The notes: generated by a model not told the origin, from the sequence alone. DNA of 64,000 nucleotides from an uncultured Armatimonadia bacterium (GCA_963749155.1 CAVVLO010000001.1:896001-960000), one strand, 5' to 3'; positions 2,156 to 64,000 are shown, counted from the first letter of the stretch. Translations and numbers: made by a program.

Positions 2156-3460
2156 ATGATCTGGAACCCCGATGTTGAGACGCTCCCCAGACCCAGGCTG
2201 GAGGAGCTCCAAAGCAAGCGCCTGGCCAGGCTGGCAGAATATTGTTATAGGCAGGTGCCTCTCTATAAAGCCAAATTTGACGAGGCAGGCCTGTCTCCCC
2301 AGGACATCAAGACAGTCGCTGATCTCGAAAAACTTCCCTTTACCACGAAAGATGACCTGAGAGAGTCGTATCCCTTCGGCCTGTTTGCTATGCCTATTAA
2401 CGACATCGTGCGAATTCATGCCTCCAGCGGCACGACAGGACGCGCGACAGTTGTCGGTTATAGCAAAGAAGACGTGGGCATCTGGGCCGAGGTAATGGCC
2501 CGAACGCTTGCCGGTGGCGGCTGCACCAGCCATGACATCGTGCAGAACGCTTATGGTTACGGGCTTTTCACCGGGGGCCTTGGCATCCATTACGGAGCCG
2601 AGCGCATTGGCGCTTCTGTTGTTCCCGTCTCAGGCGGCAACACTCCACGCCAGCTTCAACTGATGAAGGACTTCGGCAGCACAATGCTCTGCTGCACGCC
2701 TTCTTACGCCATCCTGCTCGGTGAGTCGGCTGTGGACGCCGGTATCGATACCGCCGACCTGCCAGTCAAGATGGGCTGCTTCGGTGCCGAGCCCTGGGGC
2801 GAGCAGATGCGCAAGGAGATAGAAGCCAAACTCAATGTAAAAGCTTATGACATCTACGGCTTGTCCGAGATAATCGGTCCAGGCGTAGCCTTCGAGTGTT
2901 CGGAGCAGTCCGGTATGCACATCAACGAAGATCACTTCCTGCCGGAACTCATTGATCCAGCCACGGGCAAGCAACTGCCTTATGGCGAGTCGGGCGAACT
3001 CGTGTTCACCACGCTCACCAAGACCGGTATGCCCCTTCTGCGATATCGCACTCGCGATATCTGCACTTTCAGCCCTGACGTCTGCCCCTGCGGTCGTTCA
3101 ACAGTCAGGATGAGCAAGGTCACCGGCCGCACCGACGATATGCTCATCATCCGGGGCGTCAACGTGTTCCCGAGCCAGATTGAGACTGCGCTGCTCGAGG
3201 TGGATTTCGTCGCGCCTCACTACCTGATTATCGTCGACAGGGAAGAGGGGAAGATGGACACCCTCGAGGTGCAAGTCGAGATAAGTGAGGCCCTGTTCTC
3301 GGATGAAGTTAGTGAGCTGGTAGGCCTGGAGCACAGGCTCGAGCAGCACCTGCATAACGCGCTCAACGTGGGTTGTAAAGTGAAACTGGTCGGGCCGAAG
3401 ACTATCGAGCGTAGCGAAGCCAAGGCCAAGCGTGTTGTTGACAAGCGGGACATCCGATAA
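2156..3460 (+). CDS. paaK: Phenylacetate-CoA ligase family protein
   Basis: [54 protein letters not shown]. Confidence 0.93.
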
Positions 3461-3472
3461 GGAGGAAAGACA

Positions 3473-3907
3473 ATGACCACCGTGACGCAAGTCTCTGTTT
3501 TTGCCGAAAACAATACCGGTCAGTTGCATCAGGTGCTGGCGCCGATGGCAGCGGCTGGAGTCAACCTTCGAGCTTTTTCGATTGCAGAAGCGCCCGACTT
3601 CGGAGTGTTGCGTTTCATTGTGGATGACGCCGAGAAGGCACTCGAGGCACTGACGGCGGCAGGTTTTCGCGTAAAGCTGACTCCTGTCCATGCGGTGCAG
3701 CTTCGTGATGTGCCAGGCGCGCTGGACGAGGTATGCCTGGCGCTGGCGGAGGCGGGCATTGGCATCGATTATATGTATGCCTTTGCCGCTCACAGCCAGG
3801 CTGCGGCGATAACGATTCTCCGCACGCCAGATCCCGAAGGCACCGAAAAAGCACTCACCGCCAAGGGAATGAAGATGATCGATATGGCGAGCCTGCTCGC
3901 TCTTTAG
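3473..3907 (+). CDS. Double ACT-domain protein (commonly paaK-associated)
   Basis: QVSVFAENNTGQL...NLRAFSIAE..DFGVLRFIV...PGAL...IDYMYAF; AGGAGG RBS. Confidence 0.88.
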   Translation: MTTVTQVSVFAENNTGQLHQVLAPMAAAGVNLRAFSIAEAPDFGVLRFIVDDAEKALEALTAAGFRVKLTPVHAVQLRDVPGALDEVCLALAEAGIGIDYMYAFAAHSQAAAITILRTPDPEGTEKALTAKGMKMIDMASLLAL

Positions 3908-3948
3908 GAAGAGTCCGGACTGCCATAGCCTGCCTGGAGGCGCCACAT

Positions 3949-4740
3949 ATGGGGCTTTCTGTATACATAATGACTGATCTCGAAGGGGTCTCGGGCGTGT
4001 TGCTGGAGGCCCAGACCATCCAGGACGGAGCTGCTTACGAGCTTGCGCGTCACTGGCTCACCGCCGAACTCAACGCCACAATCGCTGGTGCCTTCGATGC
4101 GGGAGCCGAACGGGTCGTGGCGGTGGATGGTCACGGCAAACCCTTCAATTTCGTCTACGAAGAACTTGATGAGCGCGCCGAATATATTGTGGGCAGCGGA
4201 TGGGAGTTCTACCCCGAAGGAGCTGCCAGCGTCTTCGACTGCGCTTTTTGTATTGGCTTCCATGCGATGGCTGGTACGCCTAATGCAGTGCTTGACCATA
4301 CAATGAGTTCGGCGACCTGGCAGAATTGCTGGATAAATGGCCAACTTGTCGGAGAGCTGGCTATAGTAGCGGGAGTCCTGGGCGAACTTGGTGTGCCAGT
4401 CACGCTGGTCAGTGGGGACGATGCAACTTGCAGCGAGGCGCGCGAGTTGCTTGGGCCCGTTGAGACTGTCGTTACCAAGTATGGTATCAGCCGTCATACA
4501 GCCAAACTGCGCGCTCAAGGGCCAGTGCTTGCAGAGCTTAGAGAAAAAGCTCGATTAGCGGTGACAGGGCGCTCAAAAGTCTCGCCCCTCGTTTTCGATG
4601 TCCCAGTTGAGCTGAAGATTGAGTATACTAAGACTGCATATGCGGACGGGCTTCGGTCAGGCTTGAAGGAGCGCCCGGAGCCGAGAATGAGACTAGTAAA
4701 AGGTGAAACGTTAGGTCAAGCTTTTCTTAACCTACACTAA
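3949..4740 (+). CDS. M55 family D-aminopeptidase (DppA-like)
   Basis: VYIMTDLEGVSGV, VDGHG, IGFHA.AG, LDHT and VSGDD motifs; start moved to ATG 3949. Confidence 0.9.
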   Translation: MGLSVYIMTDLEGVSGVLLEAQTIQDGAAYELARHWLTAELNATIAGAFDAGAERVVAVDGHGKPFNFVYEELDERAEYIVGSGWEFYPEGAASVFDCAFCIGFHAMAGTPNAVLDHTMSSATWQNCWINGQLVGELAIVAGVLGELGVPVTLVSGDDATCSEARELLGPVETVVTKYGISRHTAKLRAQGPVLAELREKARLAVTGRSKVSPLVFDVPVELKIEYTKTAYADGLRSGLKERPEPRMRLVKGETLGQAFLNLH

Positions 4741-49166: not shown

Positions 49167-51836
49167 ATGCCTGACGGCAGGAAATGGGTGTACTTGTTCA
49201 GCGAAGGCAACAAGGAGATGCGCGACCTTCTTGGTGGTAAGGGCAGCAACCTCGCCGAGATGACCAATGCAGGGCTTCCGGTACCTCAGGGCTTCACAAT
49301 CACCACCGAAGCTTGCAACGAATATATTTCTCTTGGCAACAACTGGCCCGCTGGCTCCTGGGAACAGGCCGAAGTCGCGATGCAGAAGCTTCAGGAGATG
49401 ACCGGCAAGCAGTTTGGCGATCCCGGTAATCCACTGCTTGTATCTGTCCGCTCAGGCGCGAAGTTCTCGATGCCGGGTATGATGGACACCGTGCTTAACC
49501 TGGGCCTCAATGACGCCACAGTCGAAGGCCTGGCCGAACTCACAGGCAATCCCCGCTTCGCTTATGACTCCTACAGGCGCTTCATTATGATGTTCGGCGA
49601 CGTCGTCCTCAAGGTCGAGCGCGAACACTTCGAGAAGATCTTTGATGCCAAGAAGGCCGAGCGTGGTATTGAGCTCGATACCGAGCTTGCCGCTGAAGAC
49701 CTCAAAGCTGTGGCAGAGCAGTTCAAGGCCCTTGTCGAGAAAGACACTGGCAAGCCCTTCCCGACCGACCCCTGGCAGCAGCTGAAGCTGGGCGCCGAGG
49801 CCGTGTTCGGTTCCTGGATGACCCCTCGCGCCTGCACCTACCGCAAGCTCGAGAATATCCCCGACAACCTGGGCACCGCTGTAAACGTGCAGCTGATGGT
49901 CTACGGGAATATGGGCGATGACTGCGGCACTGGCGTTGCTTTCACCCGCAACCCCTCAACCGGCGAGCGGAAGCTCTACGGCGAGTTCCTGCAGAACGCT
50001 CAGGGCGAGGACGTCGTTGCGGGCACGCGCACCCCGCTGCACATCGACGAGCTTTCCAAGATTATGCCTGAGGTCTATACGCAGTTTGCCCAGTTGGCTG
50101 AACTGCTGGAGCGCCATTACCAGGATATGCAAGATCTCGAGTTCACCATCGAGAAGGGCAAGCTGTATATGCTGCAGACCCGCAACGGCAAGCGCACTGG
50201 TAGCGCTGCCATCAAGGTCGCGGTTGATATGGCGAAAGAGGGCCTTATCGACAAAAAGACGGCCATTATGCGCGTCACCCCCTCACAGCTTGACCAGTTG
50301 CTGCACAAGCGCATCGATGTGGACCAGGCGCCCGTCTCAATTGCCAAGGGCCTGCCCGCCTCTCCAGGCGCCGCGCAGGGCATCGTAATCTTCGACTCGC
50401 ACGAGGCTGCCGAAGTTGGGCAGACCGAAGCGGTCGTGCTGGTTCGCCCCGAGACCTCTCCAGATGACATCGCTGGCTTGCATGCGGCTCAGGGTACCCT
50501 GACCAGCCGCGGCGGTATGACCAGCCACGCCGCCGTTGTGGCTCGTGGTATGGGCCGTCCCGCTGTAGTAGGTTGCGAGTCTCTCAACATCGATATGGAA
50601 AAGGAAGTCGTCACCACCAAAGATGGCTCCGCCACTTTCAAAAAGGGCGATTTCATCACCGTGGACGGCAGTACTGGCCAGATCTATATCGGCGCCGTGC
50701 CGTTGATTGACCCCGTGATGAGCGAGGACTTCACCACGCTGCTCGCCTGGGCTGACGAACTCCGCAAGCTGGGCGTGCGCGCCAATGCAGATACTCCCGA
50801 AGACGCCAAAGTCGCCTTTGACTTCGGCGCCGAGGGTGTGGGCCTGTGCCGCACCGAGCATATGTTTATGGGCGAGGAGCGCCTTCCCGTCGTGCAGGGA
50901 ATGATTATGGCCAGCGGCATCGAAGACCGCGCGCCCTTCCTCGAGCAGTTGCTCCCGATGCAGCGCAGCGACTTCGAAGGCATATTCAAGTCGATGGAAG
51001 GCCGTCCGGTCATCATCCGCCTGCTCGATCCGCCTCTGCACGAGTTCCTGCCCGATGAGGTCGAGCTTGTCGAGAAGATCACCGAGCTCCGTTGCAAGGG
51101 TGAGACAGGCGCAGAGTTCGAGAAGCTGCAGGCCATCCTTGAGCGCGTTCGCGCCCTCAAGGAGTTCAACCCGATGCTCGGTCTGCGTGGTTGCCGCCTC
51201 GGCATCACGATGCCCGACGTAAACGAGATGCAGGTCAAGGCCATCATCTCCGCGGCCTGCCGTGTGAAACAGGCTGGCGAACCGGTCAAGGTAGAGATAA
51301 TGATCCCGCTTGTCGGCACCGTCGGCGAGCTCAAGCATGTCCGCGCTGACCTGGAGCGGATCGCCAAAGAGACAATGGCGTCCGAAGGCATCGAAGTCGA
51401 GTATATGTTCGGCACGATGATCGAGATCCCGCGCGCGGCGATTGTTGCCGCAAAGATCGCCGAAGATGCCGAGTTCTTCAGCTTCGGTACTAATGACCTG
51501 ACGCAGACGACCTGGGGTTACAGCCGGGACGATGCCGAGGGCAAGTTCATCCACAAGTACCTCGAGATGGGCATCCTCGATGAGGATCCCTTCCAGGTGT
51601 TGGATGGCGAGGGCGTTGGCAAACTGATGCAGATGGCCAAGGAGGCAGGACGTGCAACGCGTCCTGACCTTGAAGTGGGCATCTGTGGCGAGCATGGCGG
51701 CGATCCGAAGTCGATCACCTTCTGCCACAGCATCGGCCTGGACTATGTGAGCTGCTCGCCTTTCCGCGTGCCAATCGCGCGTCTGGCGGCCGCCCAGGCT
51801 GCCGTAGCCGAAGAAGTGAGTTACAGCAACGCCTGA
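49167..51836 (+). CDS. ppdK: Pyruvate phosphate dikinase
   Basis: LLGGKG.NLAEM, PLLVSVRSGA..SMPGMMDT, GGMTSHAAVVAR, GLCRTEHMF, FSFGTNDLTQ, GICGEHGG. Confidence 0.98.
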   Translation: MPDGRKWVYLFSEGNKEMRDLLGGKGSNLAEMTNAGLPVPQGFTITTEACNEYISLGNNWPAGSWEQAEVAMQKLQEMTGKQFGDPGNPLLVSVRSGAKFSMPGMMDTVLNLGLNDATVEGLAELTGNPRFAYDSYRRFIMMFGDVVLKVEREHFEKIFDAKKAERGIELDTELAAEDLKAVAEQFKALVEKDTGKPFPTDPWQQLKLGAEAVFGSWMTPRACTYRKLENIPDNLGTAVNVQLMVYGNMGDDCGTGVAFTRNPSTGERKLYGEFLQNAQGEDVVAGTRTPLHIDELSKIMPEVYTQFAQLAELLERHYQDMQDLEFTIEKGKLYMLQTRNGKRTGSAAIKVAVDMAKEGLIDKKTAIMRVTPSQLDQLLHKRIDVDQAPVSIAKGLPASPGAAQGIVIFDSHEAAEVGQTEAVVLVRPETSPDDIAGLHAAQGTLTSRGGMTSHAAVVARGMGRPAVVGCESLNIDMEKEVVTTKDGSATFKKGDFITVDGSTGQIYIGAVPLIDPVMSEDFTTLLAWADELRKLGVRANADTPEDAKVAFDFGAEGVGLCRTEHMFMGEERLPVVQGMIMASGIEDRAPFLEQLLPMQRSDFEGIFKSMEGRPVIIRLLDPPLHEFLPDEVELVEKITELRCKGETGAEFEKLQAILERVRALKEFNPMLGLRGCRLGITMPDVNEMQVKAIISAACRVKQAGEPVKVEIMIPLVGTVGELKHVRADLERIAKETMASEGIEVEYMFGTMIEIPRAAIVAAKIAEDAEFFSFGTNDLTQTTWGYSRDDAEGKFIHKYLEMGILDEDPFQVLDGEGVGKLMQMAKEAGRATRPDLEVGICGEHGGDPKSITFCHSIGLDYVSCSPFRVPIARLAAAQAAVAEEVSYSNA

Positions 51837-51858
51837 GAGGGTTGCTTCCTGTGAATTA

Positions 51859-51895
51859 CAGAACCCGGGTTGGCAAGGCGCTGGCCCGGGTTCTG
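51859..51895. terminator. Hairpin after ppdK (possible terminator)
   Basis: CAGAACCCGGG...CCCGGGTTCTG. Confidence 0.6.
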
Positions 51896-51896
51896 C

Positions 51897-51926
51897 TTGA
51901 CAGCCCCCTTTGGGTGCTGGGATAAT
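51897..51926 (+). promoter_or_regulatory. Sigma70-type promoter of tRNA-Gln
   Basis: TTGACA-N18-GATAAT ending 14 nt before the tRNA. Confidence 0.6.
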
Positions 51927-51939
51927 CTGCACGACATGT

Positions 51940-52014
51940 TGGGGCGTGGCCAAGTTGGCAAGGCACAGGACTTTGGATCCTGTATCGCAGGTTCGAGTCC
52001 TGCCGCCCCAGCCA
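51940..52014 (+). tRNA. tRNA-Gln(TTG), integration target
   Basis: TGGGGCG/CGCCCCA acceptor, CAGGA-ctTTGga-TCCTG, GCAGG-TTCGAGT-CCTGC, GCCA. Confidence 0.96.
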
Positions 52015-52016
52015 TC
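52007..52016 (+). repeat. Putative attL core CCCAGCCATC
   Basis: Overlaps the tRNA-Gln CCA end; repeated at 58098. Confidence 0.65.
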
Positions 52017-53583
52017 CTTGACGTTTTGCGCAACACGGTGCTCATCCGAGCCGGCATAGAGCTCGAACAGCACCGTTTTGTCTTTGCGGATGGTTATCCG
52101 CTTCACTAGAGCATCGACTAGCAGACCTCTCTCCTCTGCAGTGCAAAAGTCGAACAGTTCGGGCAACTGACCAAACAGCTCTTTTGCCTCTTCCAGGTTG
52201 CATGGCCTTGGTGCAGCCTCGCGAAGCCTGAGCTGCGCATCGGCCAGTTCATGCTCGAGCTGCCTGAGGTTGCTCTCAAGGTTGGTCAGGCGTCCCTGAA
52301 GTCCGCTGCTGGTGAGTCCCTTCTCGATCGCCTGGTATACCTTCTCAAGCTTGTCGGCTACGTCGGTACGTCTACGCCGGAGTTTGTCTGCCTCTTGCCT
52401 TAGCGAGGCGGTCGATGCCTCCAACTCGTCGATCGATTCCTGGGCTGCCCTGGCCAGGGCCTCCTCGTCAGTCGACAGCTCTCCGCACGACCTTCATGAA
52501 GAGCTTGTCGAGCACCTCCCCATTGATGCGTCTGACATCGCACTCGATGCCCAGGTAGCGGCCGATGCGATAGCATTCATAGTAGGCTGTGAAGTTCTTC
52601 TTTCGGTTGGGGTGCCTGGTGGCCTTGGGTGACATCCTGCAACCGCAGTGGTCGCAGTAGACTTTACCAGCGAGCAGGAAGTCGTAGTCTACGTTCATCT
52701 CCGGCCGGTGGGAATGCTCTGCGAACAAGTTCTGGGCCAGTTCGAAGGTCTCGGGATCGATGAGGGCCGGGTGTGAGCCTTCGCAACGCAGGCCCGAGTA
52801 GTTGAGTTCGCCCAGGTAGATTCGATTCTGGAGAATGTAGGAGAGCTTCTGCTTGGACCAGTATCTGAGCGCAGGTCTGTCGGGATTAGTCTTCGTGCTC
52901 CAGTTACTTGGCTTGATCCCAAGCGCTACTAGCTTGTCTCGAGTAGCTGCCAGGCTACGCGTGCGCAGATACTCCTGGAAGATAAGCTTGAGGGTAGGCG
53001 CTTCGTTCTCGTCGGGCACCAGCCCGCTATTGCACACGTTGTATCCAAAGGGCGGCATGCCACCCGGCCACCTGCCTGCTCTCGCAAGAGCTATCATCTT
53101 GTCCCGGGTGCGCTCAGCTGTCATCTCACGCTCTAGCTCGGCAAAGGTCATGGCAATGTTGCGCATCGCCTTGCCCATCGGATGCGAGGTGTCGAACTGG
53201 TCTTTAACCGCAACGAAGCTGACGCCATACTGCTCGAACCGGGCATCGAGCTGGACGAAGTCGGCAAGCGACCGGGTGATGCGATCGAGCTTGTAAGTCA
53301 CCACCACGTCGAAGACGCCCTCCTCGGCATCGAGCAGCAAGCGCTGCAGGCCAGGGCGCCGGGTATTTTTGCCCGAGAAGCCTGCGTCCTCGTAGAAGCC
53401 TTGCAGTTCCCATTCAGGATGACTTGCGGTGATGAAGGCAGTTATGATGTCGCGCTGGGACTCGAGCGTGTTGTACTCGCCCCTGGTCTGGTCTTCGGTG
53501 GAGCAGCGCAGATAGCCCACGGCGCGACCCCTATGCACCTGTTCCTTGATTTTCATTTGCTTTTTTACTCGTCTACTGGACAT
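52007..53583 (-). CDS. Large serine recombinase B; apparent indel near 52480; frame stays open through the att site
   Basis: GYLRCSTEDQ (catalytic Ser), SGK...RPGL, YKLDRITRS, PPFGY, LQNRIYLG, HPALID, Zn ribbon LLAGKVYCDHCG...YYEC, coiled coil in ORF 50337..52424. Confidence 0.9.
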
Positions 53584-55920
53584 CGTCAGCTCTCTCCTCC
53601 TGGGTCACTTCTGGGTTCGCAGCCGGCAGGCCGATTTCCTGCACGCGCTCCAAGGCCGTCTTAAAGCTGTCCGCACCGAGGGCCTTCCAGAGCCGGTGTA
53701 GTGCAGAGTTCACGGCGACCTGACTAACCTTCCTGCGTTTGGCTATCTCGGGCTGGCTCAGCCCCTGTCGCAGCAGTTCCAGACACTGAAGCTGCAATTT
53801 GGTCGGCTTGCCGACTCCAAGTTGTTCTGCCAGGTCGCCCTCTGCAAGCTGACGACAAGCGCGCACTAGCAGTTCGATTGAGGGTTCCTCTGGACTTAGC
53901 AAGCCAAGGTCGAGAGCCCTTGCAACTAGATGACCCACCTGATGGACTTTGAGCCTGGTGCTGGCCCTTTGTCTTCTGCCAGCCGCAGTAGCCTCGGGAT
54001 AACCGTTGGCCAGGCCCTCCTGGCTGACAGTGAGCCCGGCGGCCAGGGCGCGAAGGGAAATCAGTTCTTTTTGGGTAAGTAGAGTCGGCTGCTGCTTTGG
54101 CTTGCTGCACGCGGCCTTCGAGGGGCAGCAAGTCGCGCCACTGAGCGATCAGGGAAGCAGCAAGCACCGCAGCCTCCCGCTCATTCTCGGCACCCATCGC
54201 GTCAATCGCCCGGTTTCGAAGAGTATTAACCGTGGAGCTAGACACCTGGAATCGCTTGCGAATGGCTTTGTCGTTCAGGCCATCGGCTACCAGCGCCAGA
54301 TAAGCCAGTTGGCGTCGGGTGATCCTGGCGCAGAATTTACCCTTTCGGATCCTGCGCCACTGGAACCCGATCGGTAGCATAAATCGCTGCTCGGGCAGGT
54401 ATTTAAAGAGGACCCTGATACTCACTGCGCCTTGGGCAAGACCGACTTCGACCCGCTCGATCAGCGCTTCGCAGAGGGCCCGTCTGCGCTCTGGGGAGGC
54501 CTCTTCCCAAAGCCGGGGCAGATCGGCAAGCAGGCCTTCAACCTTCGCGAAGTCCTCTTCAAGAGTCCGGCGACTATCTCCCACTGCCATAAGCTCACTC
54601 AGTCGGCGCTCAAGCTTGAAAGCCTGCTCATTTACCTGTCTATCGATAGACTGAAGCAATTGTTCGCTGAGCGCGCCGTCAGTGTATTGCGCGGCAGCGG
54701 CATCTCGATGCTTCTGGAGTTTCGCCAGTTCATCTCGAACACGAGTCTCTTCGTTCCCGTTTGCATATTCTTTCTTAAACAAGCCAAGCGCAACGCGCCT
54801 GGCCTCCTCGAGCACCTCGGGCTTCGACGCATATTCCAATAGCAGGTCTCTGACACGCTGCTCGAGGAATTCGCCCCTCACGTAAGGTCTGGTCTCACAG
54901 TCTATATCGAGCTTTGGTCCTCTGCACCGGTAGCCATAATTCTTGCCCAGCCTGTGCACGAGCACCAGGCGACTTTTGCACTCGGCACACCAGGTCAGCC
55001 TGCCAAGCAAAGCCTCTGGACAACCGTGCGTTCGTCCAGAAAAGCGTCGTCTGGACCGGAGCAATTCCTGTATGCGAAAGAAAGTATTCGGGTCGACCAG
55101 CCGTTCATCCCAGTGAGCACCCTGTATATACTTTCCCTCGTGCGCGATCAGTCCAGCGTGCAGTGGATTCGTCAAGACCTTACTCACGGTATTTGCTCGC
55201 CAATAAGGTCCACCTTTCGGAGCGGGGATCCCCCTTGCCCGGATTTCTTTCGCAACCGCCTCCAGTCCGGAGCTTTGCTCATAGAGTTGGAAGATTAGTT
55301 TTACGACATCGGCCTCAGCCGGTTCTGCCACAATGCCTGGTCTTGCTCTACTTGGTGTCATTAGGATCACCTACCGGTCCAGTGTTGCGCCAGCCATAGC
55401 CTGGCCTTCCTGTGGGATAGCCGTCTTCTCGTCGCTGGCGCATGGCCGACTTCACATTCTCGGCTCCGATATTGGCAAACAATTCTGCGGCTAGCGCCAT
55501 GAAATGGGCTGCGAATTTGCCCATCGGGGTAGTCGTATCGAGACTGTCACTTACAGAAACCAGTGCTACACCAGACTCCTCTACACATTCATGAAAGAAA
55601 TCGAGCCAGACCCGAGCATTGCGCCCCAATCTGTCGAGACGCCAGAAGGCTACGACGTCGATTTCTCTGGCTTTCACAGCAGCCACCAGCGCAGCCAGTG
55701 CAGGCCTTAACCTGCGGGTCTGACCCGGCTTGTAGCCATACCGGCCCGATATCCCCTCATCGGCAAACACCTGCAAGGTATAGCCATCAACTCTATACAG
55801 CCGATCGAGGTGCTGCCGGCAGGCGGTCTCCTGGGACTCGAGCGAATAGCCGGACTGCACCTGCTCCTCGGTCGAGACCCTTTTGTATAGTCCTACTCTG
55901 GGTCTTGTAAGGGGTTTCAT
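53573..55920 (-). CDS. Large serine recombinase A with three putative C-terminal LuxR-type HTH domains; apparent indels near 55355 and 54105
   Basis: LYKRVSTEEQ, RPAL, WRLDRLGRN, PGYGW, LTNP..AG, LLGRLTWCAEC...YRC; then ITRRQLAYLALVADGL..., LTQKELISLRALAAGL... and PTKLQLQCLELLRQGLSQPEIA; stitched from three ORFs. Confidence 0.78.
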
Positions 55921-56013
55921 TTCGTTGCTCCTTTACTGAGAATTTCTGCCCTTTATGGGCTTTCAAAACGTGTATCAGGTACTCCATGCCATCGACGTTA
56001 TGCATTTCAATAT

Positions 56014-56042
56014 ATTATACATGAGTCGTACTGGTTTATAAA
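56014..56042 (-). promoter_or_regulatory. Putative sigma70 promoter of the recombinase operon
   Basis: Minus strand TTTATA-N17-TATAAT in an AT-rich tract about 95 nt upstream of ATG 55920. Confidence 0.5.
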
Positions 56043-56074
56043 GTACTGCACTTCTTATTAAACGTATTCTAAAC

Positions 56075-56260
56075 TCAGCACGAAGAATTACATAACTTAT
56101 CCTCTGCTGAAGCCTGCTCCGGTGCGTCTTGATCGGACTCTTGCCCCGCGTTCGCTTTGGGATTTGTTATCGCCTCGTAGACCATAGTTGCGAGCAGCTG
56201 GGCGAAGGCATGCCTGCTCTGCTCAGGATCATCCGACTGTTGATGACTGGGTTGCTGCAT
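56075..56260 (-). CDS. Small hypothetical protein (61 aa)
   Basis: AAGGGGGTGA RBS; central helix-like RHAFAQLLATMVYEAI; upstream of the recombinases. Confidence 0.5.
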   Translation of the reverse strand: MQQPSHQQSDDPEQSRHAFAQLLATMVYEAITNPKANAGQESDQDAPEQASAEDKLCNSSC

Positions 56261-56411
56261 TTGGGCTCACCCCCTTCGCTGCCTGGCTTTGCTTTTGGCG
56301 CTGCTTTGCCCGGCGCAGCACCTCGAGTACCAGCGCATAACGCCGTACGATATCCGGGGTGTGGACGAGTATCAGACTTGCTGTGTATCGACCTTCTCTT
56401 TCCATCTGCAT
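56229..56411 (-). CDS. Small basic hypothetical protein (60 aa)
   Basis: ATG with upstream GGGGA; RRYALVLEVLRRAKQRQK helix; overlaps the next ORF. Confidence 0.45.
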   Translation of the reverse strand: MQMEREGRYTASLILVHTPDIVRRYALVLEVLRRAKQRQKQSQAAKGVSPNAATQSSTVG

Positions 56412-56495
56412 AATGTTTTCGTCCCCAGGCTTGACTTTCTATTTCTACTGTATATGGTTAGTTGTGAGGCGACGGCGGGCTAGATTTTGGGCTAG

Positions 56496-57713
56496 ATGAT
56501 GGAGGAGATAGTCGTGAGTATGCCAGTTCAACTGTGGGCGCCTAAGACGCCTACGAATCCGATCTTCCCAAGGGCACAGGCAGACTTGGAGGCAGCTTTC
56601 CGTTTGTGGCAGGGCGAGATACGAATCTATTTCCACGATTTTTGCGATCAGACCAGGCGTTTCGTAACCGAAAAGACCGTGCAGGATGTAGGGCTCCCCC
56701 AGGCACTCGTTCCGGGCCAGGAATTGCGGATCTTGGACGTGGTGCACATTGATGAGCAGCTAGGTGTATGGCCGCCAGTTGACATGGGGCCGGATGTTCC
56801 CGAACTGAACCGAGTCTCAGCGTCTCTGTACCAGCAATGGGCTGACTCTCGGCTACTCATTTTGAGAGGGAGAAAGAGTTTTCGTTGGAGGCTGCCTGCA
56901 GTGAGGAACGGAGAGCTGGCTTGGGAGGATTTCGATATCTCGATGCCGCCCGGACCCGTTGCGGACCTGATAGCAGAGGAGGGAGACGAAGGTCTCATCA
57001 AGATCCGTTTTGGTTCCGGACTGGCGGGACGCCCAACGGTTAGCCTCGAGCTCGAACAACTCGAGCAGCACGGGAACCTGCGATGGGAAGAAGACCATGA
57101 ATTATCTGAGGAATGGGATGTTGTGGTGTCGCAAGATGCCCCCGACATACCCGCGATATACCTAACGCACAGATGGCCCAGCCCCTTCGATGTTATGTTC
57201 CCCTTTGTGGGACTCGACATACTGCATAGCTGGGGCACTATGCAAATAGCACTTGAGAACATAAGAGAAGGTCGCACTGAACTGGCACTTAAAGCCGCCT
57301 GTGAGGTTGTAGAGTCGCGGACAGCCGAGGTAGGTGTAGAGTTATGCTACGCCTGGTTCTTGCCGAAGCTCTCGTTAAGTCCGCAGGAGGCGCTCATGGC
57401 ACTAGAAAACCGCTTTGGGCTGGTATTCTCTACACTGGACAAGGTTTTCCAATCGGCTGAAGCAATGCGGCTGTTGTCCACACCCATTCCAGTCAGAAGG
57501 GTGGTAGGCTGGGACGGTTACTTATGGTGGCGTTTGTATGAGGACCTGCAATCAGGCATGGGATTCGGGGTTTGTCGTCGCTGCGGGCAACCGCTCATCG
57601 GTGTCACGAGCGCAAGGCGATTCTGCTCAAGAGCAGAAAACGAGGAGTGCTACCTTGCCCGACGGGCTGCTTCGCAGAGGGAGCGCTATAAGAGAACGAG
57701 GAACCACACTTAA
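56496..57713 (+). CDS. Hypothetical protein with C-terminal CGNR-like zinc finger
   Basis: 405-aa ORF ending CRRCGQPL......RRFCS......C..ARRAASQRERYKR. Confidence 0.7.
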   Translation: MMEEIVVSMPVQLWAPKTPTNPIFPRAQADLEAAFRLWQGEIRIYFHDFCDQTRRFVTEKTVQDVGLPQALVPGQELRILDVVHIDEQLGVWPPVDMGPDVPELNRVSASLYQQWADSRLLILRGRKSFRWRLPAVRNGELAWEDFDISMPPGPVADLIAEEGDEGLIKIRFGSGLAGRPTVSLELEQLEQHGNLRWEEDHELSEEWDVVVSQDAPDIPAIYLTHRWPSPFDVMFPFVGLDILHSWGTMQIALENIREGRTELALKAACEVVESRTAEVGVELCYAWFLPKLSLSPQEALMALENRFGLVFSTLDKVFQSAEAMRLLSTPIPVRRVVGWDGYLWWRLYEDLQSGMGFGVCRRCGQPLIGVTSARRFCSRAENEECYLARRAASQRERYKRTRNHT

Positions 57714-58026
57714 CAGTTTGCGACAGCGCACCGGCGCTACCCCATTGTGGGGGTAGCCTGCAACCTGGCTTGAGGAGAACTCCCCCTTCCTATCTCTGAG
57801 CTAGCAAGGCGCTCTACAGCGCCGTTTACAGCGAGCAGGACACTGCCGTGTTGTATCCTACTTGATATCGCAAGGCTCCATGTACCGGGCGTTTTCAAGT
57901 CCTGCATCACCATCACCAACCTGAGTGTGGCATCGGTAGAAAACGCGACAACGAAAACTGCGTTTTCTAAGCTGGTGGGGCTTGAAAGCTCCTCGGCCGC
58001 TCCCGAAGGCCGGGTTCGGTCTTCAG

Positions 58027-58107
58027 TTGGGGCGTCCTGGGCCAGCAGCGATCGCTGACTTCGCTAGCAAAGTGGCGCTGCTTCGAATCGCACTGCTCCC
58101 AGCCATC
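58027..58107 (+). other. Degenerate tRNA-like sequence containing the putative attR core
   Basis: Begins TTGGGGCGT like tRNA-Gln; has TTCGAATC and CCCAGCCA at near-tRNA spacing; D and anticodon arms not recognisable. Confidence 0.55.
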
Positions 58108-58428
58108 GTGATGCAATACCTGGCGTAGCAGCCATAATGGCCTCCTCCATGTCCGCCTGGCGGATCGCTGGCGATCAGTCGGTCTCTGGATCCGGCCGCC
58201 CTCTTAGCTGCCCTGGCAGGATTTACGGCTGGCATAATGCTCACCTGTTGATGTCACAGCTGCCAGTCAAGGGGCTCCGGGGGGCAGGCGACCTGGGCAC
58301 CCGGACACTGAGGCCACGGGGGAGCTGTCTCGTTATCAGCAGGTATGCACAGCCCTGCAACGAAACCAGCATTAGGACGACAGCCAGAACGTGTGCGACT
58401 TAAGGCGCACCGGGGAGGCCATCGGGTC

Positions 58429-60732
58429 GTGGCAAGGAGACGTCTGGGCACTCAACCAAACCCCGCCAACCCCAAGAACTGGCTAACGGGCGCGAGCAAG
58501 ACCATCGTGCTGTTGATGGTCTTCCTGGTGCCGCTTGCCATCTGGCCGGGCACGGCGAACGCCAACGCCATCAAGGACCTGCTCTTCGGCCTCGGCTCGA
58601 TCGCGCTTGCAGTCCTCCTGACGGTCCGCTTGATGCGCGGGGAGCGGCTCAGGCTGGGACGTTCGCCCCTGTTCCTGCCCCTTGCCTGCATGCTCGCCTG
58701 GGATGTCGTCTCGGGGCTGCTGTCAGGCTATCTGTACGCCAGTCTCACTGCCCTCGGCCACCTCGCCGGTTACGCGCTGCTCTATATCGCGGTCGTTGAT
58801 CTGGCGGCCGAGAGAGGGCAACTGGGCCGGCTGCTGGCAGTGGTGATGAGCGCGTCACTGTTGACCTGCGTCTACGGGTTGCTCCAGCACTGGGGCATCG
58901 ACTGGATTGAGTGGTACCCGAGGGAACTACGCCTGCTCTCCTCCTTCGGTAATCCCACCTTCTTTGCGGCCTGGCTGGTACTGTTGCTTCCACTGGCGGT
59001 GGTGTTGCACGTGCAGGCGGAGACGAGGGCAGGGCGGCTCGCCGCCGGCACGCTGGCCCTGCTGATGTATGTCTGCCTGCTCTTCACCTACACGCGGGCG
59101 GCGTGGCTTGGGCTGGCGCTGGGGCTCGTGGTTACTGGGCTTCTGCTCAGCCTGAAGCGAGCAACCACGGAAGAAACCGGGAAGGCGTGGTACCTGAGGA
59201 TCGGCTGGCTGGCTTTCGCCTTCGCGGTGGCGACCCTTTGGACACTCGGCCACAGTCCCGTGTCGATGTCCTCACGACTTGCCTCTTCGTTCCAGACGAA
59301 CGAAGCCTCGAACGTGCAGCGCCTTGGTATCTGGCATGGGGCGCTTGCGATGTTCAAGGCCCATCCCGTCACGGGCGCGGGCCTTGGCACCTTCGAGATC
59401 CACTTCCCCGAGTTCGAGTCGCCCGAGTTCTACTCGACCGGCGCCGCGACGATGGTGGATCACGCCCACAACGAGTTCCTGGAGACCGCGGCCGAGACGG
59501 GCCTCATCGGGCTGGGGCTGCTCCTCTGGCTTGCAGTTGCCTGCGTCGTGACGGCGGTGAGGGCGGCTCGCCTGGCCGAGGCCCGCTGGCGCTACCTTGC
59601 CAGCGGGGCGCTTGGCGGGCTTGTGGCGTTCATGGTGCAGAACCTGGCAGGCGTGACGCTAAGGTGGGTGTTCGGCGGCCTGTTCTTCTGGTTGCTGCTC
59701 GCGCTAGTTACGGTGGCAGAACAGCAGAGCCGGAGTAACCGCAGCGAAGCTCCTGGCACCTCAGTTATCACAGCCAGAGGGAACGCCTGGCCGGCCAGCC
59801 GGCTGGCAGCAGCGTCGGTAGTGATAGCCCTGGCCGCAGTCCTCGGCAGCGTAGCGGTGGTGCGCGCCTTCGCTGCTGGCTACCACCTGAAGCAGGGAAG
59901 ACTACGCCAACGAACAGAGCGTGTGGGAGCTTGCCGGGACGCAGCTCACCGAGGCCCTCAGGCTGGATCCGTACTCGCTGGACGCCTACTACCAGCTGGG
60001 CCACGTGCTCAACATGACCGGCGATTATGAGGGGGCGCTCTCAGCATACCAGTCGCTTGGCCGCCTGGCGCCGAACTACGGGCGCCTGCACTTCAACCTG
60101 GGAGTCGTCTACTCGAACCTGGGCGATACCGCGCAGGCTGTGGCTGAGTATAGGCGGGCCGTTGCGCTCGAGGACTCGCCCAGCGCTCACCTGGCGCTTG
60201 CCGAAGGTCTCATGGCCGAGGGGCAGGGCGAGGAGGCGCTCGAAGAGGCAGGCCTGGCGATCGCCAAGCTCGACAAGCAAGGTCCGGCCCCGGCGCTGAT
60301 CCTGGGGACGCCTATCTGCGCCGGGGCAAGCTCAGATATGCCGAGAAGCAATACGCGGGAGCTGAACAGGACTACCGCAAGTGTCTGGAGCTGACACCAG
60401 AGAGCAAGCTGGCCCGGTTCTACCTGGGCAACCTGTACCGAGCCCAGCGGCGATCCGCCGAGGCCCTTGCCCAGTACCAGAAGGCGCTGGAACTGGACCC
60501 CACTGACGCGCGAGTCCTCACGAACCTGGGCGCTGTGTACATCGACGAGGGCAAGTGGTCGGAGGCCGAGGTGCAGCTCCTAAAGGCCCTCAAGCTCTCC
60601 CCAAACGATGAAAGGGCGCGTTACAACCTGGCCCTCGTCTATCAGAAACAGGGCCTCGTCGCCAAGGCTCAAGCAGAACTGGACAAGCTGGGGCGCCCGG
60701 AGCTCTTGGATCAGCCGGATGGGCCTTCGTAA
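58429..60732 (+). CDS. O-antigen ligase (Wzy_C)-like membrane protein with C-terminal TPRs; apparent indels near 59905 and 60300
   Basis: YGLLQ, SSFGNP..FA, TYTRAAWLG, R..IW, HP.TG.G.G.F, HAHNE.L...AETG..G; TPR repeats follow in shifted frames; GTG start after GGGGAGG. Confidence 0.85.
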
Positions 60733-60844
60733 CGACCTTTGCACGAGTTCGAGTAGTCGACTCACGCCTGCCGCTCCCTTCTCCTCGCACTCACATCTAA
60801 TACTTCCAGGATCTGCCATCGCCAGGCTAGTGGTACAACCGGGG

Positions 60845-60872
60845 TTGACACCTCAGCGGACCGGTCTATAAT
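60845..60872 (+). promoter_or_regulatory. Consensus sigma70 promoter
   Basis: TTGACA-N16-TATAAT. Confidence 0.7.
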
Positions 60873-60975
60873 CGAAGGTAGTAACCTGTTGGTTTCCAGC
60901 ACACACTTTGAATTACGTTGTAAAGACGCTGTTTGTAAAAGTAGGTGTTTCGTCCCAACCAAGGAGGAAGCCCCG

Positions 60976-61714
60976 ATGTCAGGCTCGAGACGCTGGGCAG
61001 CGTTTGCCCTGGTCACAGTGCTCCTTACGGTGGTCACGCTCCTCGTTCTGTGGTACCCGGTCCTCGCCGACGGGCTGAAGGACGCCCAGCAGGCCTCCTG
61101 CATCGCCAACCTCAAGAAGATCATCCTCGCAACCAGAATGTACTGCAGCGACTGGGACGGCGCTTACCCCAACTCCGCCCTTACCGGCGCAAGCTACTCC
61201 GAGGCCTATGGCGGCGAGTTGCCGAAGAACATGCAGTTCGAGCGCCAGCGGAAGGGCTGGCCCGTGGCGCTGGCGCCTTACCTGGCCGACTCGCAGGTGC
61301 TGTGGTGTCCTGCTGACGGCGACCTCGCTGAGCACTGCCCCAGATGCCGAGGTGTCCTACTGGTTTCGCCACGCCCTGGACATCGGCCCTCTCTACCACT
61401 GGGGTCGGCCGCTCTCGGTGTCCGACATGGCCTTCGCCGATAGGCAGTTCCTCTTCTACGAGCATAGCGACTGGCACGGCGCGGGCGTTGGCCTTGGTAC
61501 TGGCATCGCCGGTGCCGGCGGCCACGGGCCCGACCTCGACGGCATCACCTCGGTGACGATCAACTGCGCCTTCGCGGACGGCCACGCGGCCGCGCTCGAG
61601 CTTGGGCCCGGCCTCTCTTCCGCAGGCAAGACCATCGATGCCAACTGGTTCACCTCGACCACTGACCCCTCCGACCCAACGGCCCTGTGGAACCCGAAGA
61701 TCAGCCTCGACTAG
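60976..61714 (+). CDS. Atypical prepilin-like/DUF1559-like protein; apparent indel near 61330
   Basis: AAGGAGG RBS; hydrophobic N-terminus then YPVLA.....AQQASCIANLKKI..A..MY..DWDG.YP, WCPAD, and C-terminal WH...INCAFADGH. Confidence 0.78.
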
Positions 61715-61771
61715 CGGGCGTTGGTAGACGCATCGAGGAAGGCGCGAATAGCCGTGCGGGGGTGGATGGCA

Positions 61772-63219
61772 ATGAGGAAGACAGCAGTTGGCCTGCTGGC
61801 ACTGAGTCTGACTATGATGCTGGTTGCCGGGATGAGCGCCGTTGCTGGCGCGGCACCCGAGGGGCTCCAGGAGGCCATCGCCTTGCTGGGGCAGGGGCGG
61901 TACCAAGAGGCCCAGGCGGCTTGCGAGGGGCAGTTCTTGCAAGGGCCGGCCGGGGAAGCGGCTGCCCGGCTCGTGCTTGCGGAGATCTGGGCCGCCCAGG
62001 GCCAGTTCGACAGCGCGGTAGAGCAGGCCTCGAAGGCACACGACCTCGCAAGCGGTCTGCAGCCGGCAGACGCGGCGCTTACCGCCCAGGCCGAAGCCGC
62101 GATGGCGCGGCATAGCGGCGATGCAGCAGACCTTCGACGACCGGGTCGCCAAGCTTCAGGCGGATGTGGCCGCAGGGGCTGGCACGCCCAAGGGCTGGCA
62201 GGCCCAGCTTGCGCTGGGTGACACCTTCACGCTCAACGGACACTTCGATGACGCCCTCGAACAGTATGGAACTCTCTCTCAGGCAACGCCAATCAGCATT
62301 TGGGCTGAGCGAGCCGCTGCCAGGATGGGGCTGGTCTACGACGCCACCGGCAAGCCTGACGAGGCGCGCCAGGCCTACCTGCTGTGCGGACTCGCTGGGC
62401 GGGCAGTTGCGCTACGAGGCAGTGGGCAAGGCCCAGGTTGCCCAGTATCAGGCGACCCTCGCCGCGAGCCCGGGCGACGACGAGGCGGCCGAGGTACGCT
62501 ACAAGATTGCCTGCATATACGCCCAGTACCTGATGTACGATCAGGCTATCGCGGAGCTGGTCGGCCTCATCGACACGTACCCCACCAGCAAGCCGGCCGC
62601 CAAGGGCCTGTCCCTGCTCACCACGCTCTTCATCCAGTCAGAGCGCCCCGACGAGGCGGTCGAGGTGCTGGTGCCACTGGTCGATGACCACTACGCGGAC
62701 GACTCAGCCGTGCTCGTGGGGTTGTGCGGGGTATACCGGCGCGCCGGTGGCACCACCGATGCGGAAAGCACAGCCAAGGGCGTGCTGAGAGACTACCCCG
62801 ACAGCGAGCAGGTCGCTGGGGCTGTCACCGAGTTGAAGGCGACCTACGAGGCCGCTGGGAACACCCCAGAGGCAACAGCAGGCAAGCTCAGAGCCTTACC
62901 GAGTGCCTACCCAGGCCCCGAGGTCGGCCCTGCAGTGGACGAGGGGATCGAGCAGCTCGCCTCAGCCTACTACTACCAGGGCACGGGCCTGGCCGCCGAG
63001 GACAAGTACGCCGAGGCCTTGGCTCTATTCGACAAGGCCCTCGCCCTGAGGCCGCCGGCCGACACTGGCCCCAAGGCGGCCTATCAGAAGGCCATCTGCT
63101 ACCACGCCCTGGGTGACGACCCCCAGGCCATCGCGGCCTTCAAGGCAGTGATCCAGGAGTACCCGGATGCTTATCTGGCCATCAGGGCTGCGAACTGGAT
63201 CGCGCGGCTCGGGGGCTAG
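61772..63219 (+). CDS. Secreted TPR-repeat protein (BamD/YbgF-like repeats); apparent indels near 62110 and 62395
   Basis: Signal peptide MRKTAVGLLALSL...AVAGA; repeats such as YDQAIAELVGLIDTYPTS and QAIAAFKAVIQEYPDA across three ORFs. Confidence 0.75.
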
Positions 63220-63234
63220 TGAGGCAGGAGCAAT

Positions 63235-64000
63235 ATGGAGCGGTCTACTCCTCCAGTCTGGATGGTTGCAGCAGTTGTGGTCGGCGTGCTGGTCGGCGCG
63301 GCGGCGCTCTGGCATCTGCTCGCAGGTCCGAGTGCGGGCGGGAGCCATTCCGCTGCATCGCTCTCTGATTCCACCGAGTCCGCCCCCTCTCCCGTGGCCC
63401 GGGGCCTGTACGACGAGGCCTATGCGGCAGCCGGGAAGGGGGATATACGAGGGCTGCGGAGCGCTTCTCGCAGCTGCTGGCGAAGTGTCCCAATGACCCG
63501 CTGGCCGATGATGCCCAGTACCAGCGCGGCATCTGCTTCTTCGCCCAGAGGGACTACGCCGATGCCGAGCGCGAGTTCCGGGAGCTGCAGCAGCGCTTCC
63601 CCGACAGCTACCTCAGCGAGAAGGCTGAGGACTGGATCGCCAAGGCCCGGGTCAAGCAGGGCGGCGGGACCACGAAGGTAACAGACGCTCCGGGTTCCGC
63701 TACGAGGCCTGTCGAAGAGGCCATCAGCGACGTCACGGGGGCAGGCGAGCGCAAGCTGGAGCCGCTCATCTACGAGGAGACGCGACCTGCGCCGCGGGTG
63801 GGGATGTGTGGGCCGGACGCACTGGCGATCATCTGCAAACAACTTGGAGAGGCAACTACGCCCGAAGAACTAGCCCGCCTCGCCAGCACCGACCGCACAG
63901 GCACCTCGCTGGCGGGTCTTGCGAAAGCGGCCAAGGCCAAGGGACTGGCGGCCGAGGGGCTCCAGGTGAACTACGAGTACCTGCGCAAGATGCCAAAGCC
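63235..64000 (+). CDS. Membrane-anchored TPR plus C39 cysteine peptidase domain protein, partial; apparent indel near 63445
   Basis: N-terminal TM; shifted frame gives LADDAQYQRGICFF..RDY..AEREF..LQQRFPDS then GMCGPDALAIICKQLG.....EELARLASTDRTGTSLAGLAKAAKAKGL.A.G. Confidence 0.78.

Follow-up and report, generated by a model that had tools for sequence, protein, structure and literature searches.

Large serine integrases of phages and of integrative and conjugative elements (TP901-1, A118/LI, SPbeta, Bxb1, phiC31) are single-protein systems which mostly target protein-coding genes. The staphylococcal cassette chromosome mec (SCCmec) uses two co-transcribed serine recombinases, CcrA and CcrB, each a single polypeptide and both needed, and inserts at the 3' end of rlmH, which is a conserved gene. 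We describe here a pair of serine recombinases, RecB and its upstream partner RecA (read in the parts RecA-N and RecA-C), which lies beside a tRNA-Gln gene of an uncultured Armatimonadia bacterium. The window, i.e. the whole stretch of DNA analysed, comprises 64,000 nt (GCA_963749155.1 CAVVLO010000001.1:896001-960000), and coordinates without a contig name refer to it. The segment 52015-58107, named E1, is probably a member of an integrative, probably mobilizable family of elements inserting at tRNA 3' ends via such a recombinase pair. C1 denotes the contig with E1, C2 the contig with a sister element, E2, and C5 a further contig of the same genome (G000).

The closest described system is the integration module of the Dehalococcoides ssrA islands (McMurdie et al., 2011; PMC3146451). 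According to the part of that publication used here, the module lies on the reverse strand beside attL and contains a tRNA-like sequence. DsiB (~540 aa) is CcrB-like, and its gene always overlaps attL with no stop before ssrA; DsiA (~200 aa), encoded in the same operon, is a serine recombinase consisting of the catalytic domain only. The islands show a 20-bp direct repeat of the RNA 3' end from the T-loop, carry cargo, occur in tandem and are inferred there to be mobilizable, not conjugative. E1 is similar to this published account in its reverse-strand recombinase gene beside attL, which overlaps the RNA 3' end without an in-element stop, and in the catalytic-only partner (190 aa for RecA-N), a likeness to DsiA and DsiB drawn from the module description. 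The repeat described there would correspond in E2 to 20 nt starting in the T-loop, though on another contig, and in E1 to 10 exact nt within a 24/32 similarity. As far as the same account goes, the differences are the target, tmRNA there and tRNA (Gln, Glu, Asn) here, the RecA-C gene with three helix-turn-helix (HTH) domains between the recombinase genes here, and the lack of RecF-, ParB-, Mom- and RNA-polymerase-domain Pfam matches in E1. A previous sequence-only reading of the window had considered the element family possibly undescribed in this lineage; with an attL-overlapping recombinase and a small catalytic-only partner already reported for the ssrA islands, the element type as such is not undescribed. 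Tycheposons (Hackl et al., bioRxiv 10.1101/2020.12.28.424599) are described, in the part of the preprint used, as tRNA-proximal, with partial tRNA copies at the flanks and islands formed by accretion; a large serine recombinase is present in 27/937, most having tyrosine recombinases and many having replication genes. E1 resembles them in the tRNA-proximal integrase and the partial tRNA copies and differs from that description in that neither tyrosine recombinases nor replication genes were seen. In the literature that we searched, we found neither a family of serine integrases directed at tRNA genes nor an integrase naturally split or encoded by two genes.

Recombinase genes at tRNA 3' ends

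RecB relatives of at least 36% identity with the gene 3' end present were collected (12 loci). In 11 of them, the recB 3' end adjoins a whole or partial tRNA 3' end:

tRNA called by ARAGORN (8 loci): E1 Gln; E2 Glu; L029 Asn; L030 Glu; L031 Gln-CUG; L036 Asn; G338 Asn; G047 Asn
Partial tRNA (3 loci): L028, 53 nt of tRNA-Asn; L038, ~50 nt of tRNA-Glu; L032, 19 nt of tRNA-Glu
No adjoining tRNA (1 locus): G197

RecA-type sequence is found directly 5' of recB in all ten closer-clade loci with enough DNA; G047 and G197, the two distant loci, lack it. The order orf60-orf61-recA-N-recA-C-recB-tRNA is common to E1 (Gln), E2 (Glu) and G338 (Asn; a complete genome of the same phylum), and the check for a five-gene synteny beside tRNAs, suggested by the sequence-only reading, thereby found the module kept in three elements. 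The self-excising element family proposed there stands as a family of large serine recombinases at tRNA ends; as to self-excision, neither an empty site in relatives nor a circle among the listed joints of four metagenome runs was seen, sources which cannot prove absence.

The features of E1 and its borders are as follows:

51940..52014, plus strand: tRNA-Gln(UUG), putative integration target (ARAGORN call)
52007..52016, plus strand: left copy of CCCAGCCATC, candidate attL core, comprising the acceptor 3' end, CCA and 2 nt
52015..52493, minus strand: C-terminal part of RecB, putative coiled coil and tail ...VAQNVK (stop-to-stop frames, alignment)
52468..53583, minus strand: N-terminal part of RecB with Resolvase, Recombinase and Zn ribbon, YLRCS catalytic motif (Pfam)
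53573..54148, minus strand: distal part of RecA-C with the second and third HTH domains, frame different from the proximal part (Pfam, PHROGs)
54075..55361, minus strand: proximal part of RecA-C with Recombinase, Zn ribbon, coiled coil and the first, LuxR/GerE-type HTH (Pfam)
55348..55920, minus strand: RecA-N, 190 aa, catalytic domain only (GLYKRVSTEEQ, WRLDRL; Pfam Resolvase E = 1.5e-29)
55921..56074, no strand: AT-rich spacer 5' of recA-N, at G+C 0.48 the region's minimum (G+C profile), probably a promoter or operator region
56075..56260, minus strand: orf61, small conserved protein containing FAQLLATMVYEAI (look-alikes by position in E2 and G338)
56229..56411, minus strand: orf60, small basic protein with the motif TPDIVRRYALVLEVL (motif scan and tblastn)
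56496..57713, plus strand: ORF405, 405 aa, divergent, C-terminal CxxC..C..C cluster, no conserved relative
57938..57968, no strand: 9-bp inverted repeat AGAAAACGC/GCGTTTTCT, where a 98.4%-identical stretch shared with C2 begins (~57944)
58026..58107, plus strand: apparent degenerate full-length tRNA-Gln copy, 82 nt, ending in the second CCCAGCCATC; attR candidate

Most of the layout given by the sequence-only reading was recovered. The tRNA-Gln at 51940-52014 is abutted by two co-oriented serine recombinase genes, which lie on the minus strand between the repeats (Resolvase, Recombinase, Zn_ribbon_recom); the end of RecA-C and the start of RecB share the reported 11-nt overlap (53573-53583); the window contains exactly two copies of CCCAGCCATC, at 52007 and 58098 and thus 6.1 kb apart; and two small open reading frames (ORFs) and the 405-aa ORF with its C-terminal Cys cluster are found between the copies. 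The Resolvase, Recombinase and Zn ribbon domains, the strand and the overlap of the two recombinase genes also hold, but not the single open frame assumed for each, as both change frame. A sigma-70-like promoter (TTGACA..GATAAT) can be read directly 5' of tRNA-Gln. No Pfam, PHROGs or NCBIfam match was obtained for orf60, orf61 or ORF405, and ORF405 gave no tblastn match in related loci or elsewhere in the genome; in Atlas, only unnamed clusters and a zf-FCS lead were found for it.

E2 lies at the start of C2 with tRNA-Glu(CUC) (C2:9702-9779) as target. Its RecB' is intact (546 aa) and 70% identical to RecB, with the last 22 codons being antisense tRNA, and its RecA'-C is broken at a place which differs from the break in E1. 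Copies of orf60 and orf61 are present, the latter as a look-alike at C2:4195-4353 which was also recognized by eye in G338. The orf60 motif TPDIVRRYALVLEVL was detected only in E1, E2 and G338 among the loci scanned, and tblastn of orf60 against G338 showed 47% identity over 47 aa. ORF405 is conserved in no related locus.

Relatives differ in what they carry besides the module. The tRNA-Glu elements L030 (30-8160) and L034 (2-4177) encode an Eco57I-like methyltransferase, a PLD and SNF2-helicase protein (1118 aa) and a 563-aa MerR-type HTH protein, all 5' of recA; this cargo looks like a defence type, which may be DISARM-like. The G338 element holds more than 14 kb of lower-G+C DNA rich in insertion sequences (IS). 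The compactness of E1, described as 'minimal' before, is not a property of the family, as relatives have cargo exceeding 10 kb, either of a defence type or IS-ridden.

Two further loci were observed beside tRNA-Asn. In L057 (G059:C31, ~2988-4538), a serine recombinase 26% identical to RecB' is encoded on the reverse strand directly after the tRNA, a layout which suggests a wider clade of the same organization. In L060 (G119:C140), the sequence after the tRNA-Asn CCA, ATCTTGACGCAGAGGCAACAC, resembles the conserved motif of the recB end with no recombinase gene downstream, and the site may be the scar of a lost element.

RecA in two genes

Three frames are needed to read the upstream recombinase, namely 55920..55348 (catalytic domain), 55361..~54080 and 54148..53573. 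Catalytic and DNA-binding domains are not found on one polypeptide but in overlapping ORFs of different frames. RecA-C has a start of its own (AGGTGA-N5-ATG at 55361), no catalytic domain and three extra HTH domains. The same split was observed in four of five related loci (E1, E2, L034 and G338). In all four, the catalytic ORF stops 8-15 codons past a G(Y/F)GW motif, and its stop is overlapped by an ATG with a Shine-Dalgarno sequence in front. RecA of the fifth locus, L028, is fused in a 702-aa open frame. The recA-N/recA-C junctions read:

E1: AGGTGATCCTAATG
E2: GGAGAGGCCAGATGA
L034: GGAGGTAGAGACGAATGGCTGA
G338: GGGAGGTGGATGATGAATAA

Both ORFs are intact in L034 (208 + 594 aa) and G338 (193 + 624 aa). 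In the protein database, three RecA-C homologues (583-593 aa, 47-55% identical) are without a Resolvase domain, and two more distant ones (758 and 779 aa; P0125, P0126) are fused with Resolvase present. Because the arrangement and its ribosome-binding sites recur in diverged loci, the split of RecA is a conserved two-gene arrangement and no lesion. In E1, the junction is spanned gap-free by record 7 of metagenome run X1 (55225-55623). A different frame change, located near 54075-54100 of the E1 recA-C by tblastn with the intact L034 and G338 proteins, lies in a region of thin metagenome cover, where the lone long contig departs from the window at 54111.

Additional copies of the catalytic ORF were observed in two loci. 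E2 has three tandem, near-identical ORFs (181, 180 and 195 aa; C2 4676-6344), each a complete catalytic domain and joined by ATGA overlaps, 5' of recA'-C, and G338 has a partial second copy (L047 9358-9861).

Structure prediction for a complex of RecA-N with RecA-C(1-200) led to an interaction prediction score from aligned errors (ipSAE) of 0.37, the best control being 0.00, with at least 75% contact agreement between the runs and a predicted local distance difference test (pLDDT) of at least 72 for the partner. In the benchmark, the mark was passed by 116/157 solved complexes and 2/215 mismatched pairs, with 18/157 solved complexes and both passing mismatches at 0.60 or under. The prediction weakly supports a pairing of RecA-N with RecA-C, and the pass may mirror likeness only, because the two halves resemble solved single-chain integrases.

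RecB and its gene end

RecB (53583..52015, minus strand) shows the arrangement of the large serine recombinase superfamily, a Resolvase domain with the nucleophilic Ser (YLRCS motif) followed by Recombinase and zinc ribbon (Pfam PF00239, 1.2e-39; PF07508, 4.1e-16; PF13408, 5e-10). For the coiled coil, only weak Tropomyosin and DUF4600 matches below the curated cut-offs were obtained (52015-52424), and the region aligns with RecB'. Domain order and catalytic motif are those of the phage and conjugative-element integrases, and the two-recombinase layout is that of CcrAB, which differs in its rlmH target. CcrB is also the best NCBIfam match of RecB', with all scores far below the curated cut-offs (CcrB 137.3/900, CcrA 123.2/700, CcrC 104.1/900, XisF 125.9/375); sequence matches in the PDB were the TP901-1, SPbeta and A118 integrases. 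No RecB relatives were found in viral contigs, and a scan of genome contigs with a single protein led to relatives of 35% identity or less and to none closer.

The RecB frame reaches a stop at 52468, and another frame runs from 52493 to 52015 and then antisense through the tRNA without a stop; the C-terminal part is 59% identical to RecB' of C2. The break is due to one extra base at 52486 (1-base frameshift), which is missing from the metagenome contigs of all four runs (one contig per run). In the contig of run X4 (52391-52856, 465 nt), one further letter differs from the window. Without base 52486, RecB reads LFMKVVGELSTDEE, colinear with the intact paralogue RecB'. Because the base is absent in all four runs, the recB break is private to this assembly or an assembly error.

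This bears on whether E1 is a fixed, decaying remnant with recombinase pseudogenes and no movement. Frame breaks in recB (52486), in recA-C (~54090) and in the neighbouring Wzy gene would fit such a history, as would the breaks of recA-C in E2, at another place, and of recB in G338; the occurrence of the tRNA-Gln/recB junction in contigs 90-95% identical to the window also shows that the insertion is old. On the other hand, base 52486 is absent in the contigs of 4/4 runs, RecB' of E2 is intact, and the split junctions keep their ribosome-binding sites in four diverged loci, which makes a mere remnant quite unlikely.

About 10 metagenome proteins, ~50% identical to RecB', all end in ..V(V/A)QNVKxG followed by antisense-tRNA residues. 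The Val codon at the recB end is GTT in 10/10 loci, and third-position identity over the last 7 recB codons has a mean of ~0.65, compared to 0.22-0.29 for other invariant Val/Leu codons. Conservation at the recB end is thus partly at the level of DNA. Separately, 40-52 nt before the end of recB (~52055-52070), FEF(Y) codons TTCGAG(T/C)TCTA(C/T) occur in nearly all 10 loci with the third positions kept, which may reflect a second DNA-level constraint, e.g. an accessory binding site.

Attachment site and crossover

The two nucleotides after CCA vary across the loci (TC, CT, AA, GA, AC..) and are followed by the conserved CTTKACGTTTTGSRCAAC, the complement of the ..VxQNVK codons, and we would assign this region to the recB-side arm of attP. 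For E2, an exact copy of the terminal 20 nt of tRNA-Glu (T-loop to CCA+C) lies at C5:38258-38277, and CC-CTTGAC and a clean rho-independent terminator hairpin come next (to ~38330); repeat and terminator together look like the original end of the tRNA-Glu gene. A 19-nt block from the same T-loop position was found in L032. We consider the T-loop or its vicinity the more likely place of crossover, in which case the ~20 nt at the tRNA 3' end would come from the element, because the exact blocks of 19-20 nt in L032 and in the C5 copy start in the T-loop and because there is the Dehalococcoides precedent. A less favoured alternative would be recombination at the two nucleotides directly behind CCA, considered because this variable dinucleotide precedes the conserved motif. 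The two E2 copies differ in it (CT vs CC). Direct tRNA repeats of more than 12 nt were found in none of L029, L030, L031 and L036, and no second tRNA-Asn 3'-end copy was found near the G338 element.

Right end near 58.1 kb

By chance, CCCAGCCATC is expected with a mean of 0.31 matches per window, and at least two were obtained in 5/100 shuffles; there are 22 copies in the genome, and the repeat alone is within chance. The surrounding sequence is more informative. The 32 nt ending at 58107 match tRNA-Gln positions 46-77 in 24/32 columns (score 15), a score reached in a genome-wide anchored scan by 11 non-tRNA sites in 8.35 Mb of strand sequence (~0.012 expected per 10 kb). GTTGGGGCGT, the tRNA 5' end with two flanking nt, has five genome copies, namely the tRNA, the 58-kb site, its C2 copy and two others, and its spacing to CCCAGCCATC is 72 nt at the right site and 69 nt in tRNA-Gln. 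Because of the 32-nt alignment, the rare score and this spacing, 58026-58107 is most readily read as a degenerate full-length copy of tRNA-Gln. The Rfam tRNA model gave no match at E <= 10 on 57700-58300, and by this model the copy is no cloverleaf. That E1 is an accident, with two unrelated recombinase remnants beside a tRNA and a chance 10-mer, would agree with the 22 genome copies of the 10-mer, but it is contradicted by the tRNA 3' ends at 11/12 related loci, by the conserved module and by the paired 10-mers, which retain the spacing of the tRNA; we consider such an accident highly improbable.

A G+C step from ~0.55 to ~0.65 occurs at 57.9-58.0 kb, and a right end near 58.1 kb is plausible because of this step and the degenerate tRNA-Gln copy. 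The border proposed at 58107 is borne out to this extent, but the repeat is also present, with one mismatch, in the flank of E2. Inside the tRNA-Gln-like copy, a perfect 10-nt palindrome (AGCGATCGCT, 58047-58056) was noticed, a speculative candidate site for the RecA-C HTH domains. Another candidate for a tRNA-Gln 3'-end repeat, at C1:669253 (score 18), was dropped, as ARAGORN called no tRNA and no G+C anomaly was present.

Several observations weigh against E1 being an element inserted at a tRNA end with the borders given above. An empty site was seen neither among genomes of the same class nor among G338 relatives, as follows. The nearest 40 genomes share only the class; in nearly all of these, ppdK and tRNA-Gln lie on separate contigs, and the two are not adjacent. 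The G338 relatives G059, G373 and G119 keep the upstream gene and tRNA-Asn without the element, the DNA beyond the tRNA being unrelated, and no empty site was found in them. No circle or cross-element joint is among the listed joints of the four metagenome runs, whose contigs cannot prove absence. Both recB and recA-C are frame-broken in this assembly, and by eye no dyad symmetry was seen that would relate the right end (P side) to the recB-side arm. At the right end, the similarity of the interior of the tRNA-like copy to the tRNA is not significant (257/2000 shuffles score as high). The copy is also not simply the displaced original end, because no pairing would occur between its 3' acceptor strand and the tRNA 5' strand. 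Finally, 2846 nt of the window, from ~57944 rightward, are 98.4% identical to the E2 flank (C2:2843..1), and a simple model of independent integration does not account for a flank shared at different tRNAs.

The retention of the upstream gene and tRNA-Asn in the three G338 relatives indicates that the tRNA of G338 belongs to the host and that the element lies downstream. As to the metagenome, contigs of the four runs were aligned to 50500-60800, with no run containing more than 0.38 of the words. The tRNA-Gln/recB junction is bridged by contigs of other runs (X3 record 18, X1 record 3), as is the right side (57811-60333 in X1, 57876-58472 in X2). The stretch 56348-57810 with ORF405 is almost without cover in the four runs, which counts neither for nor against excision. 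L028 showed no terminal overlap that would indicate circularity.

The shared flank spans the tRNA-Gln-like copy (the 10-mer with one mismatch) and extends into a Wzy-type gene; left of ~57944, E1 and E2 are unrelated or only 69% identical. Three explanations may be considered: a duplicated Wzy/TPR/Rhs block, two strain arrangements mixed in the assembly (contamination 5.87%, and a second, frame-broken dnaA on C5), or, by analogy to tycheposons, capture of the former tRNA-Gln flank by the E2 island through accretion and transfer of flanking DNA.

The flank also raises the question whether the 6 kb are only the integration module of a larger island which includes the high-G+C Wzy/TPR/Rhs block, the tRNA copy at 58.1 kb being an internal scar of tandem accretion. 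The cargo 5' of recA in L030 and L034 (methyltransferase, PLD-SNF2 helicase and HTH protein, >10 kb) and the >14 kb of lower-G+C, IS-rich DNA in G338 speak for it, as do the same Wzy flank behind E2, whose 20-nt tRNA-Glu repeat is on another contig, and the G+C of the Wzy/Rhs block (0.62-0.70; genome mean 0.59). Tandem, repeat-separated islands are described for Dehalococcoides (PMC3146451) and tycheposons in the parts of these accounts used here. Yet the tRNA-like repeat and the G+C step both lie at ~58 kb, and no second tRNA-Gln 3'-end copy of at least 18 nt was found in C1:940000-982451, with C1 ending in Rhs repeats which preclude the search for a farther repeat there. Overall, such a larger island appears unlikely.

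Neighbouring DNA

To the right of E1, a Wzy_C O-antigen-ligase-like and TPR gene (58345-60394) is in two frames here (561 + 157 aa) and in one 682-aa frame in the C2 copy; in contigs of other runs, base 59905 is missing and an extra C stands behind 60287. Farther on, from 60786-64000 of the window to C1:982451 (L040, L041), Rhs/YD-repeat genes, TPR proteins and a C39 peptidase are encoded in a 6.9-kb repeat. An inverted copy of the repeat is found at C1:972061-978946 and further copies at several contig ends, and it probably caused the assembly breaks. C2 starts where this Rhs-associated repeat begins. On C5, the G+C of positions 1-35000 (L064, L065) is 65-72%, compared to a genome mean of 59%. 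This block contains a second dnaA, which is frame-broken, pieces of gyrB/gyrA and V-type ATPase genes, and could be foreign DNA, a chimeric or a contaminant stretch. A 3.2-kb repeat at C5:32000-39000 was tried as rRNA and rejected, as Rfam gave no match and the repeat is a TPR-gene family.

Proposed mechanism and significance

For the reading of E1 as a member of a tRNA-end integrative family, the following mechanism may be proposed. RecB would be a full-length large serine recombinase of ~545 aa, encoded at the element edge by a gene that runs across the attachment site, and in the integrated state its last codons would be antisense tRNA. The partner recombinase would be made from two translationally coupled genes, RecA-N providing catalysis and RecA-C the recombinase domain, zinc ribbon, coiled coil and three HTH domains. 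At the head of the operon, orf60 and orf61 are candidate directionality or regulatory factors. Upon integration, attP, with CTTKACGTTTTGSRCAAC in its recB-side arm, would recombine with the tRNA region from T-loop to CCA, so that the left end retains the functional tRNA and the right end receives a tRNA-like copy (58026-58107). Whereas domains, gene order, the conserved module and split, the location at tRNA ends and the repeats were observed directly, the assignment of proteins to half-sites, the exact crossover, excision and present activity we only infer.

A more far-reaching scheme is put forward tentatively, as a possibility that may well fail. In it, RecA-N would be a free catalytic subunit recruited by RecA-C, which lacks a catalytic domain, and would act together with RecB. 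As the recB gene spans its own att site, the RecB tail would be exchanged upon integration, which might provide a built-in directionality switch, and the fused, split and DsiA-only layouts would form one evolutionary series.

Serine integrases are valued tools for genome engineering, as one protein and two short sites suffice. If catalysis and targeting are indeed on separate polypeptides, with a second full integrase required and a landing site at tRNA ends, the system would show how specificity and catalysis separate, and it would offer ready-made landing sites in every genome. Annotators should be aware that recombinase genes which look 'broken' at tRNA ends may be intact, being either divided into two genes or continued across an att site. 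E1 is a real member of a conserved family, for which we infer mobility and mechanism; the mechanism of the Dehalococcoides ssrA islands would thereby be extended to tRNA genes in other lineages, with relatives that carry defence-type cargo.

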